A DNA stretch of 13,807 nt, taken from positions 1-13,807 of the forward strand of contig QMVG01000012.1 in the NCBI GenBank assembly GCA_003660975.1, in the 5' to 3' direction. The stretch is from Candidatus Micrarchaeota archaeon (lineage in GTDB: Archaea; B1Sed10-29; B47-G15). A program made the position numbers and the translations under genes. The notes beneath the pieces were generated by a model. It made no database searches, was not told the DNA's origin, and worked only from the letters and a program-made list of their open reading frames with translations. Shown here one piece after another: positions 10,765 through 13,400 of this stretch. Every line of letters begins with the position of its first letter. Position 1 is the stretch's first letter.

Positions 10765-10911
10765 ATGGCGAAGCGAGCGTTGATCACGGGCATCACAGGA
10801 CAGGATGGCTCCTATCTAGCCGAGCTGCTGTTGGCCAAAGGCTATGAGGTCCATGGGCTCATCCGCCGGACGGGCACTCCGGCTCGGAGTCGCAGTGCGG
10901 CGGTCGGTTGA
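10765..10911 (+). pseudogene. gmd: gmd 5' stub no. 1 (35 gmd-homologous codons plus a 13-codon tail)
   Basis: [57 protein letters not shown] at 10752-10757. Too short for the ORF track. Confidence 0.92.
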
Positions 10912-10955
10912 GTAGGATAGAGGTGTGCATCGGTTGAATCGAGGAGTGATGTGTT

Positions 10956-11255
10956 ATGACCGTCAAGGAGAAGATCGAGCGGCTCAAGCGCGAGAAGACC
11001 ACGCATTCCACTGAGGAGCTGGACCGTCTTGGCTGGGCCCGCTATGAGGAAATCAAACAGGAGCTGGAGGCTAAACATCACGGTGAGTACGTCGTGATCG
11101 AGGTGGACAGCGGGGACTATTTTGTGGGAAAGACCGCCGAGGAGGCCTTTCAGCAAGCTGAAAAGATCCATCCCGACAAGGCTTTCTGCCTGATCCGCGT
11201 TGGATATAAGGCGGTGCATAAGCTGAAGCGCCATGATCCAAGGATATGTGACTGA
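10956..11255 (+). CDS. DUF5678-like small protein (putative partner of the downstream protease)
   Basis: LEAKHHGEYVVIEVDSGDYFVGKTAEEAFQQAEKIHPDKAFCLIRVG fits the small alpha/beta family often found upstream of retropepsin-like genes. An RBS-like GAGGAG lies upstream, and the ORF overlaps the next one. Confidence 0.7.
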   Translation: MTVKEKIERLKREKTTHSTEELDRLGWARYEEIKQELEAKHHGEYVVIEVDSGDYFVGKTAEEAFQQAEKIHPDKAFCLIRVGYKAVHKLKRHDPRICD

Positions 11256-11601
11256 GGCACTGGATCCGATAATTGAAATAGGACTCAAGCGAGGGGAAGC
11301 CACGGAGTTCATTCCAGCGGTCATTGATACTGGGTTCAGCGGTCAGCTGTGTCTATCTAAGCGATATGAGGACAAGATCAAGATGGTGTTTCACCATGTT
11401 GAGCGCTATGAGTTGGCCAATAGTGAGGTTGTCGTCATGGATGTGTTTCGGGGAACCATCCTGTTCGGCGGACGTGCCCATGTGGTGGACCTGATTTTTA
11501 CGAACTCGCAGGACACGTTGATTGGAGCCTCGCTTCTGAAGGACTATAGGCTAGCGATCGATTATCCTAGACGCGTTGTCGAAGTGGAGAGGCAGATCTG
11601 A
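11233..11601 (+). CDS. Clan AA (retropepsin-like) aspartic protease, AF_0612-like
   Basis: 122 aa with catalytic VIDTGFSG, flap-like YELANSE, and TLIGASLLKDYRLAIDY. Confidence 0.88.
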   Translation: MIQGYVTEALDPIIEIGLKRGEATEFIPAVIDTGFSGQLCLSKRYEDKIKMVFHHVERYELANSEVVVMDVFRGTILFGGRAHVVDLIFTNSQDTLIGASLLKDYRLAIDYPRRVVEVERQI

Positions 11602-11632
11602 GAAGGTGAGCTTGATCTGAAGGAGGGACAGG

Positions 11633-11746
11633 GTGAAAAGAGCGCTGATCACAGGGATTACCGGACAAGATGGCTCCTATTTAGCGGAACTACTGCTCGC
11701 TAAAGGCTACGAGGTGCATGGGCTCATTCGGCTAAACCAGGACTAG
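11633..11746 (+). pseudogene. gmd: gmd 5' stub no. 2 (33 gmd-homologous codons plus a 4-codon tail)
   Basis: GTG start, [46 protein letters not shown] at 11621-11626. Confidence 0.92.
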
Positions 11747-11762
11747 ATATACATGATGGCAG

Positions 11763-12044
11763 ATGACAAATAATAAGGCTATAGACCTACAAAAGCCGAT
11801 TGAGTTCAGCTCCCATGCCCGAGAGAAGATGCTGGATCGTGGAGCTACAGAAAGCGAAGTCAAAGCAGCCATTCGCACTGGGAGCCCTGAGCCGGCACGT
11901 AAAGGACGGCTCATGTTCCGGAAGAACTTCACCTTTAACGGACACTGGCGTGGTAAGCACTATGCTGTCAAACAAGTGGTTCCTGTCGTTGCGGAAGAGC
12001 CTAACAGGCTGGTTGTGGTGACGGTGTTTGTATACTATTTCTAA
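11763..12044 (+). CDS. DUF4258-family protein (putative RelE-like ribonuclease toxin)
   Basis: IEFSSHAREKMLDRGATESEVKAAIRTG...LVVVTVFVYY matches the FSxHAxxxMxxR...VVTV pattern. Confidence 0.82.
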   Translation: MTNNKAIDLQKPIEFSSHAREKMLDRGATESEVKAAIRTGSPEPARKGRLMFRKNFTFNGHWRGKHYAVKQVVPVVAEEPNRLVVVTVFVYYF

Positions 12045-12059
12045 GGGAGGTGAGAAAAC

Positions 12060-12281
12060 ATGGAGATTGTCTATGATCCGTCCGTTGACGCCCTAACCAT
12101 CCGGTTTGTTAAAGAGAGGGTAGAGTGTGAGGTGATCCGCCTTAACGATCAGGTGGCCGTGGACATCGGACCAGGAGAACGCATTGTAGCGATCGAGGTG
12201 CTAGATGCGAGTGAGTTGGTCCCAGGGATTAAGGAGGGAAAGGTCTCCTTGAAAAACCTTGCTCTCGCTGCAGAAAGCTGA
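12060..12281 (+). CDS. DUF2283-family protein (putative antitoxin)
   Basis: MEIVYDPSVDALTIRF...VAVDIGPGERIVAIEVLDAS matches YDxxxDALYI...D.....IVGIEILDAS. Strong RBS GGAGGT. Confidence 0.85.
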   Translation: MEIVYDPSVDALTIRFVKERVECEVIRLNDQVAVDIGPGERIVAIEVLDASELVPGIKEGKVSLKNLALAAES

Positions 12282-12314
12282 GGATGTTTTATCTCACTGG
12301 GGGAGAGAGAAACC

Positions 12315-13400
12315 ATGAAGAAAGCATTGATCACGGGAATAACCGGCCAGGACGGTTCCTATTTAGCTGAGCTCTTGCTGGCCAAGGGCTATGAAGTCCA
12401 CGGGCTCATCCGCCGGGCCAGCACCTTCAATACCGACCGGATCGATCATATCTATCAGGATCCCCATGAGCCCGGCGCACGGCTTTTCCTGCATTATGGA
12501 GATCTGACCAACGGGGAGCAGTTGACAAACCTGATTTACAACGTGAAGCCGGATGAGGTCTATCATCTCGGAGCACAGAGCCACGTCCGGGTGAGCTTTG
12601 ACATGCCTGAATACACTGGGGATGTTACCGGTTTGGGTACTACCAGGATCCTGGAGGCGATCCGTCGGAGCGGGATAAAAACAAAGTTCTATCAAGCTTC
12701 CAGCTCGGAGATGTTCGGCGCCGCTCCCCCGCCACAAAACGAGAACACGCCTTTCATGCCCCGCAGTCCCTATGCCTGCGCCAAGGTCTACGCCTACTGG
12801 ATGACGGTGAACTACCGCGAGGGTTACGGCCTGTTTGCCTGCAACGGCATCCTATTTAACCACGAGTCGCCCAGGCGTGGTGAAACCTTCGTCACCCGCA
12901 AGATCACGCGGGCCATTGCCAACATCATCGCGGGCAACCAGAAGAAACTCTATTTAGGGAACCTTAAAGCTAAGCGCGACTGGGGTTATGCCCCCGAGTA
13001 TGCCGAGGCAATGTGGCTCATGCTTCAACAAGAGAAACCTGATGATTACGTCATTGGAACGGGTGAGGCGCATTCTGTCCAGGAGTTTTTGGAAGAGGCC
13101 TTTGCCTACGTGGAGCTGGATTGGCAAGAATATGTGGAGATCGACCCCAGGTACTTCCGGCCCACCGAAGTAGAGGTTCTATTAGCAGATGCTACGAAGG
13201 CGAGGAGGGAGCTGGGCTGGGAACCCAAGATCACTTTTAGAGAACTGGTAAGGATCATGGTTGACGCCGACATGGAGGCCATCGGACTGACGCCACCGGG
13301 AGAGGGCAAGAAAATTTTGGAAGAAAAGTTCACGGGGTGGCATCAGTGGGATAACAGCGTCAAAGCTGTCTATGAAAATGTGCGACGAGGGTTAGAATAG
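12315..13400 (+). CDS. gmd: GDP-mannose 4,6-dehydratase
   Basis: [69 protein letters not shown]. Full length, 361 aa. Confidence 0.98.

Follow-up and report, generated by a model that had tools for sequence, protein, structure and literature searches.

It has long been asked how small selfish or defence modules, toxin-antitoxin pairs among them, can move when they carry no mobility gene, and the locus described here raises the question in a concrete form. The window, by which we mean the whole stretch of DNA analysed, is the entire 13.8-kb contig QMVG01000012.1 (C12; 13,807 nucleotides) of assembly GCA_003660975.1, a 1.33-Mb, 130-contig bin listed as Candidatus Micrarchaeota archaeon. Towards its end, an intact gmd gene, encoding GDP-mannose 4,6-dehydratase, is preceded by two stubs that repeat the first codons of gmd, and each stub is followed by a small two-gene cassette. 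Why does this locus have three gmd starts, and how did the cassettes come to lie between them? Our analysis suggests that the stubs are probably displaced gmd 5' ends, left by serial homology-guided insertion of toxin-antitoxin-like cassettes without a recombinase of their own. If so, the gmd locus keeps a readable, polymorphic footprint of integrase-less cassette entry into a gene. The array comprises the following features (ORF, open reading frame; aa, amino acids):

10765-10911, + strand: gmd stub A, a 48-aa ORF with an ATG start, gmd-like to about 10869-10878 and then continuing into an unrelated tail
10956-11601, + strand: cassette 1, a 99-aa ORF overlapping a 122-aa ORF for a retropepsin-like clan AA protease (11233-11601)
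11633-11746, + strand: gmd stub B, a 37-aa ORF with a GTG start, gmd-like to about 11731
11763-12281, + strand: cassette 2, a two-gene toxin-antitoxin-like module of DUF4258 (11763-12044) and DUF2283 (12060-12281)
12315-13400, + strand: intact gmd, 361 aa, ATG start, whose first ~100 bases are referred to as copy C

The intact gene matches PF16363 over profile positions 1-332 of 332 (E 6.5e-146) and scores 535.2 bits against TIGR01472, above the curated cut-off of 415, which places its product in that family. The cassettes measure 0.65 kb (cassette 1) and 0.52 kb (cassette 2). Both genes of cassette 2 match Pfam families above cut-off (DUF4258, E 8.1e-7; DUF2283, E 7e-10), and the same pairing recurs in five other loci (L157, L158, L165, L173 and L184). 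Small, adjacent or overlapping, co-oriented genes of paired families, the layout of type II toxin-antitoxin modules, are seen both in this pair and in a HicB-like/HicA pair downstream of gmd. For cassette 1, only weak family matches bear on such an assignment: the 99-aa ORF matches Pfam DUF5678 below cut-off (E 0.0022), and the protease ORF matches TIGR03698 (clan_AA_DTGF) with E 1.1e-13 and 51.4 bits, under the cut-off of 57.35. We regard both cassettes, from their predicted products, as toxin-antitoxin-like two-gene modules. A scan of 27 window ORFs revealed no integrase or transposase family, and Rfam gave 0 matches in the window.

Three gmd starts with one protein sequence

Copies A, B and C were aligned over 30 codons from the Ala codon of the motif ALITG (10777, 11642 and 12324, respectively). 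The encoded 30-residue peptide is identical in all three, while the 90 underlying bases differ at 17 positions between A and B, 15 between A and C and 22 between B and C, corresponding to pairwise identities of 81%, 83% and 76% and to longest identical runs of 12, 15 and 11 bases. All of these differences are synonymous, with second codon positions untouched. The proportion of synonymous sites that differ (pS) is 0.70 for A-B, 0.64 for A-C and 0.92 for B-C, at or near saturation, against 0 changes at ~66 non-synonymous sites (dN = 0). A random single-base change here would be synonymous in only 26-31% of cases, and the probability that 15 to 29 changes would all be so under neutral decay is ~1e-8 to 1e-17. 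Because every pairwise difference is synonymous and dN is 0 at ~66 sites, neutral decay in place is excluded.

The original prediction, made from the DNA letters and their translations, had reported 15, 22 and 17 all-synonymous differences over 30 codons; every one of these numbers was reproduced by the alignment, and its view that neutral decay after a local duplication is unlikely holds. It had also stated that each stub keeps its ribosome-binding site and start codon, and this too was confirmed: Shine-Dalgarno-like motifs stand before A (AAGGAG, 10752-10757), before B (GGAGG) and before C (GGGGGAG), and the stubs open with ATG (A) and GTG (B). The sequences upstream of the three copies are mutually unrelated, and the residues preceding ALITG are MAKR in A, VKR in B and MKK in C. 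At the other end, similarity to gmd stops after GLIRR in stub A and after GLIR in stub B, and all three copies share GGGCTCAT just ahead of this point. No further gmd remnants were found between the copies. The first 17 coding bases of stub A (10765-10781) also match the start of an epimerase gene in a related metagenome contig (L129, 13591-13607) at 16/17 positions; this may be chance or may be a junction trace between paralogous Rossmann-gene starts, the match being too short to distinguish from chance.

Co-existing forms of the locus in public sequencing runs

Logan contigs of public runs were searched at a likeness threshold of 90. None of the public runs listed as containing the locus is an RNA data set. 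The array is spanned by one 1674-base contig in each of the runs X1 and X2 (10767-12440, 5 differences), one of which is possibly the sample behind the window assembly, and by one 2192-base contig in X6, a run from another study (10765-12770, 61 differences and 8 gaps). X6 holds an independent strain, about 97% identical to the window, and an assembly error is an unlikely source of the array. The X6 strain lacks 8 single bases at 11600-11624, in the spacer between cassette 1 and stub B, and these losses may alter the ribosome-binding site of stub B.

Forms with no, one and two cassettes were observed to co-exist in these environmental samples. Both X1 and X2 contain a contig that joins 10828 to 12376 in register, skipping 1547 bases; the joint produces a hybrid gmd start, A-like on the left and C-like on the right, without stub B or the cassettes. 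The depth of the hybrid contig is 17.7 in X1 and 20.3 in X2, as opposed to 25.3 and 28.7 for the array contig, and the flanking bins in X1 sum to about 41-42, so that the X1 depths, a weak measure when taken from contigs, are consistent with two co-existing forms. In X3, a contig covers 11505-11727, i.e., the end of cassette 1 and copy B, and continues for 55 more bases, 30 of which were read and encode the gmd body with three synonymous differences from the window gmd. In the X3 form, an intact B-type gmd comes directly after cassette 1, and cassette 2 is missing. In another X3 contig, which matches the window from 10780 onwards, a further start (ATG CCG AAG GCT) lies ahead of the matching part.

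The three starts in intact gmd genes

Our first gmd sample consisted of 80 loci (one genome per species) and 41 others, mostly from Anaerolineae at 66-79% identity. The 30-residue peptide of the three copies is absent from the 115 distinct sequences of this sample. The notion that the peptide is rare was rejected once a larger protein collection showed it to be common in the true clade: among the 120 closest listed gmd proteins, 16 were read, 86-96% identical to the window protein, and the identical peptide is present in 9 of these 16. The close relatives that carry names are metagenome-assembled genomes (MAGs) labelled Bipolaricaulis or Bipolaricaulota, Firmicutes or Bacillota, and Thermodesulfovibrionales.

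All three types of start precede intact gmd genes that are 88-93% identical to the window gene: MAKR in P0123, P0126 and P0130, (M/V)KR in P0128, P0129, P0137 and P0139 (as MKR), and MKK in P0122 and P0125. The N-termini among the related proteins read comprise MTKR, MKK, MAKR, MAKK, MKR, MER/VER, MMKR and MSK. Judged from these sequences, the A-type (MAKR), B-type (M/V-KR) and C-type (MKK) starts are all ordinary starts of working gmd genes in one clade. Within this clade the Rossmann-motif peptide is almost invariant and whole proteins are 4-14% different, a distance at which saturated synonymous sites are expected. Peptide identity combined with synonymous saturation therefore calls for no special selection on the stubs. 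Seven loci related to the glycosyltransferase upstream of the array (77-86% identical) do not have gmd at that place, and they provided no orthologous empty site.

Similar arrangements in other genomes

The nearest locus (L001) comes from the class Anaerolineae, of which 401 genomes, one per species, were searched; they include an unpublished genome (G350), about which we make no specific claim. The 34-residue gmd start gave 603 matches in 386 genomes. Among the 150 of these matches that were listed, short gmd open frames away from contig ends are present in G131 and G377; short frames in G197, G169 and G358 were rejected as stubs, being merely contig ends. Both G131 and G377 have an intact gmd on another contig, only 57% identical to the window gmd. 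Counting stub-sized gmd ORFs was uninformative, as 7488 of 8000 scored candidates matched and frameshifted or truncated genes made up most of the 36 that were read. Near gmd itself, 2 of the 80 loci (L021, 7084-7170; L080, 3774-3863) have a second match to the start peptide at 69-70% identity, which may be either a paralogue or a stub.

In G131, contig 235 carries two stubs that are almost identical over ~190 bases, including ~70 upstream bases, and flank a 472-aa Schlafen/AlbA_2-type gene; a 103-aa ORF and DUF2283 precede them. One of these stubs has Trp in place of Arg at the conserved RR. A third stub, on contig 169 of the same genome, is interrupted by a tandem repeat of ~70 bases, and a PIN-type pair comes after it. 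Contig 109 of G377 encodes a UPF0150 (HicB-like) protein, a HicA-like ORF and a stub of residues 1-36, followed by UPF0175/DUF3368, an antitoxin-like ORF with a 135-aa ORF, and a nucleotidyltransferase/HEPN pair (these last four ORFs were named by reading, without a profile scan); further on there is a gmd fragment of residues 21-53 and then more pairs. In the same contig (locus L117, 800-7700), the pairs form a long toxin-antitoxin array with internal duplications 94-99% identical and a ~250-base non-coding element in two to three copies between cassettes (repeat families D2, D4 and D6); a similar element seems to be present in G131.

Cassettes containing DUF4258 occur in 60 of the 401 genomes. 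Cassette loci were compared with themselves by blastn, tblastx giving mostly low-complexity matches in this GC-rich DNA. In 6 of the 30 fetched DUF4258-cassette loci (L158, L165, L172, L173, L183 and L184), direct repeats of 37-353 bases lie on both sides of the cassette and are copies of neighbouring host sequence; three further loci whose flanking repeats resemble palindromic or terminator-type elements were left out of this count. The duplicated pieces include the 5' end of ffh (56 bases, 93% identical), the 3' end of an oxidoreductase gene (37/37 bases identical, L183), the 3' end of a TPR protein gene (37 bases, 89%) and an internal or 3' piece of a HEPN gene. In L165, the repeat is 43 bases long (84% identical), encloses two cassettes and borders on the start of the following ORF. 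In L184 (G222:C26, 734-2363), an inverted DUF4258/DUF2283 pair stands between two copies of a complete Cyt-b5-like gene, each with its upstream region (353 bases, 82%). The Cyt-b5-like proteins encoded by these copies are only ~65% identical, and one copy seems to be decaying, as only the first still matches Pfam Cyt-b5. A different module, a RelE-like pair, lies between two copies of the hsdS 3' end in L176 (118 bases, 86%). Where the duplicated end is weakly constrained (hsdS, Cyt-b5-like), the copies differ in protein sequence; at the constrained gmd N-terminus they do not. Homologues of the cassette 1 protease are found in 10 of the 401 genomes at no more than 35% identity, with flanking repeats at 1-2 of 12 loci. 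Comparison of the bin with itself yielded 189 local direct-repeat pairs; none of the 16 examined is protein-identical in the manner of the gmd copies.

The window contig itself contains a comparable remnant at its other end:

553-1520, + strand: RmlD-type N-terminal stub (553-717, 54-aa ORF) fused to a truncated DUF433 ORF (699-869)

The stub covers positions 1-47 of 287 of the RmlD_sub_bind profile (E 5.6e-9) and the following ORF positions 8-34 of 56 of DUF433 (E 4.3e-9), and a degenerate, frameshifted HicB-like remnant could be read near 1340-1520. No intact rmlD follows this stub downstream. By its profile match it appears to be the start of a second sugar-nucleotide gene left beside decayed toxin-antitoxin genes. 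Short ORFs resembling the start of gmd or rmlD beside small gene pairs should be annotated with caution, as probable scars and not genes.

Origin of the array

According to the explanation we favour, cassettes would have entered the first ~100 bases of gmd one after another. The incoming DNA would have carried a cassette together with its own ribosome-binding site and the first 33-34 codons of gmd from a related gmd lineage; recombination within the common stretch would have placed this foreign start before the resident gene body, leaving the previous gmd start upstream as a stub. A would be the oldest start, with cassette 1 likely to have brought B and cassette 2 to have brought C. The simplest route would be one crossover within that stretch, made either by a circle or in an 'ends-in' event; the stretch would then lie on both sides of the cassette, with each copy a donor/recipient hybrid. 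The repeats could recombine again and remove the cassettes, which would make insertion reversible, and looping out of an existing array between two repeats could itself generate such cassette-plus-start molecules. The repeats, their purely synonymous divergence, the forms with 0, 1 and 2 cassettes and the three start types in intact genes were observed directly; we infer the involvement of host homologous recombination, the order of events, and insertion rather than deletion as the source of the polymorphism.

Several observations argue for this scheme. The identical protein and saturated synonymous sites follow if each copy long served as a working gmd start in a clade where this peptide is nearly invariant. 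The way in which the copies have diverged is incompatible with target duplication and subsequent decay, so one repeat copy, and with it one homology arm, must have come in with the insert. The mid-repeat position of the hybrid joint agrees with a model of insertion and duplication, as does the form with one cassette. One of two options in the original prediction was that the 5' ends came from different functional gmd lineages and that each had to rebuild a working gene on insertion, and this option is supported by copy B starting an intact gmd in X3, by the occurrence of all three starts in intact gmd genes of the same clade, by the shared peptide in 9 of the 16 related proteins, and by the cassette-free hybrid allele. 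Taken as a whole, the earlier interpretation is partly supported. What could previously be described as vague horizontal transfer by recombination becomes a testable model, namely insertion-duplication on a conserved gene end.

A number of points weigh against this account. Identity between the repeats is low (76-83%) and their longest identical runs measure 11-15 bases; homeologous exchange by RecA at such identity should be rare. The search for donors among the 121 other gmd 5' ends found none nearer than 16-18 differences in 90 bases, no closer to the copies than the copies are to one another, and the comparison of stub and gmd 5' ends that had been proposed earlier resolved no donor or mosaic signal. 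The X1/X2 joint was found at likeness 90, where joints under 95 can stem from other organisms, and its diagnostic positions are few (11 on the left, 4 on the right). The hybrid allele could equally be an ancestral empty site or a later deletion. No circular form was seen. Stubs at gmd are uncommon, being present in 2 of the 401 Anaerolineae genomes (among the 150 of 603 matches listed) and shown in none of the 80 nearest loci. Finally, stub ends from independent cases cluster at codons 33-39 (window stubs A and B, G377, and the two near-identical G131 contig 235 stubs); random fragment ends would not predict such clustering, which hints at a site preference.

That last observation is the starting point for a rather unlikely alternative, in which each cassette is a very small integrative element that carries a replacement gmd 5' end, much as e14 does for icd, and is mobilised in trans, at a short core near codons 30-34, by a site-specific recombinase whose gene lies elsewhere; such elements would be comparable to mobilisable islands or integron cassettes. 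Besides the clustered stub ends, it would account for GGGCTCAT just before the end of similarity in all three window copies, for the tandem order with the newest cassette adjoining the gene, as repeated use of one site would produce, and for the break of the X3 form at ~11727, the repeat end. Against it, no integrase was found in the 13.8-kb contig, and the hybrid joint (10828/12376) lies mid-repeat, 40 bases upstream of GGGCTCAT, and not at the putative core. This core is not conserved across genomes, as G131 has GGCATTAT in place of the window GGGCTCAT, and the duplicated pieces in the other loci come from many genes and vary in length from 37 to 353 bases. Assembly could in principle have created the array by joining three strains at the conserved gmd start, and the mixed bin, with contigs from 35% to 59% GC, and the presence of several strains in the runs would allow for such a chimera. 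This idea is scarcely credible, because the longest run common to the copies, 15 bases, is too short for a k-mer join and because the complete array is recovered in separate contigs of three runs, which come from two studies or more.

The other option of the original prediction was that selection maintains the 48- and 37-residue stub peptides, or the translation of these ORFs, as it would if they acted as leaders of the downstream cassette genes. In favour of this, each stub has an open frame with a start codon and a Shine-Dalgarno-like motif before it; the distance from the stub end to the cassette start codon is 45 bases for A and 17 for B, and no terminator-like site was found on the + strand between stubs and cassettes. 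A leader role would not need an unchanged Rossmann peptide, however, and the gmd clade itself accounts for the invariance. Stub tails and lengths are unrelated, also in the other genomes, the Arg-to-Trp change and the interruption by tandem repeat affect two of the G131 stubs, and in X3 copy B is nothing more than the beginning of a full-length gene. The option finds no support, and we consider selection on the stub peptides very improbable. Equally improbable is a true local target duplication ('insertion with long target duplication') with later divergence in place. Near-identical flanking repeats do exist elsewhere, as in the G131 stubs (~190 bases) and L183 (37/37), but a non-functional copy would gather mostly replacements, and none of the 29 or more changes inferred here is one; the sequences upstream of the copies are unrelated as well. 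We strongly disfavour this explanation for the window.

Small toxin-antitoxin and defence cassettes of these uncultured bacteria, each travelling with a fragment of a highly conserved neighbour gene (in the window, the Rossmann-coding start of a sugar-nucleotide dehydratase gene), might constitute an integrase-free mobility system. The fragment would act as a portable homology arm into the same gene of other lineages, and tandem arrays would be able to loop out. Arrays would persist best with repeats as dissimilar as the genetic code permits, and synonymous divergence would be favoured as a suppressor of deletion. We put this forward tentatively, as a possible but doubtful extension.

Gene content of the rest of the contig

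The contig encodes a polysaccharide locus, with all main called genes on the + strand: the end of a UDP-glucose/GDP-mannose dehydrogenase gene, a flippase-type protein, three group-1 glycosyltransferases, a Wzy-like protein, a methyltransferase and a sulfotransferase. The features adjoining the array are:

9353-10594: the last glycosyltransferase, which precedes the 35-aa ORF and stub A
10644-10751, + strand: 35-aa ORF, a relic of the C-terminal end of a sulfotransferase-like gene and the left border of the variable region
13417-13807, + strand: HicB-like (13417-13644) and HicA (13637 to the contig end) genes, a third toxin-antitoxin pair, downstream of gmd

The 35-aa ORF has no Pfam or NCBIfam match. 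In tblastn it is 45-69% identical to the ends of longer ORFs that sit after the orthologous glycosyltransferase in L126, L129, L130 and L131; in these related metagenome contigs the sulfotransferase-like gene is longer (L126, 7716-7937; L129, 12160-12480). Between this gene and an epimerase gene, L129 contains a 307-aa ORF (within 12480-13600) that is absent in L126 and, by reading, looks like a nucleotidyltransferase and HEPN-like fusion. In the downstream pair, HicA_toxin is matched with E 3.4e-13 and HicB_lk_antitox, under the Pfam cut-off, with E 1.3e-4.

The GC content of the contig is 49%, compared with 39-41% in the large contigs of the bin, and the closest named gmd relatives are Bipolaricaulota and Bacillota MAGs. 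The contig may be mis-binned, which makes the own-genome context unreliable.

Comparison with known systems

Elements of the SXT/R391 family integrate at the 5' end of prfC, supplying a new promoter and a new 5' coding end, and small islands without an integrase of their own use the SXT/R391 site in trans. Integration of SXT/R391 depends on an integrase and a short defined core, whereas neither such an enzyme nor a core was found at gmd. Integron cassette arrays resemble the gmd array in being tandem and co-oriented, in consisting of small promoter-less cassettes with toxin-antitoxin cargo, and in having the newest cassette beside the entry site. Unlike integrons, however, the window yielded no intI, attI or attC-like element, and the start of a coding gene takes the place of the folded recombination site as the repeated unit. 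The gap between the cassette 2 stop and the gmd start is a mere 33 bases, too short for an attC-sized spacer, and no repeated non-coding element common to cassettes 1 and 2 was found. The mechanism we favour resembles Campbell-type 'ends-in' integration, in which one crossover duplicates the homology, produces hybrid copies and is reversible. That process is familiar chiefly from laboratory work, in which the homologous stretches are identical, whereas here it would have operated in nature on diverged 100-base arms.

A natural precedent for the exchange of a gene end is prophage e14 in icd of Escherichia coli K-12. The element supplies a replacement gene end, the native end stays behind as icdC, and loss of e14 recombines both icd ends, visible as a block of synonymous changes (PMC13626634). 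The likeness to the window lies in the displaced ends (stubs A and B) kept beside the inserts and in a gmd that is intact with a foreign end. By contrast, e14 is a 15-kb prophage with its own site-specific recombination, present in one copy, which replaces a 3' end; the window has two tandem inserts of 0.6-0.8 kb, with the 5' end and ribosome-binding site replaced. No e14-type element-encoded recombinase was found in the cassettes or the rest of the contig, the genome beyond the contig being unreliable on account of the mixed bin.

A full-text search turned up no description of toxin-antitoxin cassettes flanked by partial gene duplications, which is a weak negative. A close parallel is 'insertion with long target duplication', for which Nobusato 2000 is cited in PMC2853133 (Furuta, Abe and Kobayashi 2010). 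The term refers to restriction-modification modules, selfish gene units of the addiction type without transposase or integrase, flanked in many bacteria by direct repeats of more than 30 bases that correspond to a single target sequence in insert-free genomes; the mechanism is given as unknown. Its definition of a module under 20 kb with no transposase or integrase agrees with what was found in the window, and the ~100-base repeats correspond to a single hybrid copy in the cassette-free X1/X2 form (at likeness threshold 90). The two cases differ in the repeats, which in the restriction-modification examples seen there are near-identical to each other and to the target (44/46 and 417/423, for instance), while the gmd repeats are 76-83% identical, with synonymous differences only. 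They differ also in cargo, the modules here being toxin-antitoxin-like pairs and not restriction-modification systems. Relative to e14 and to long target duplication, the gmd array, for which no integrase was found, represents a variant with tandem inserts and diverged repeats, and it carries the notion of 'long target duplication', known from restriction-modification systems, over to toxin-antitoxin cassettes.

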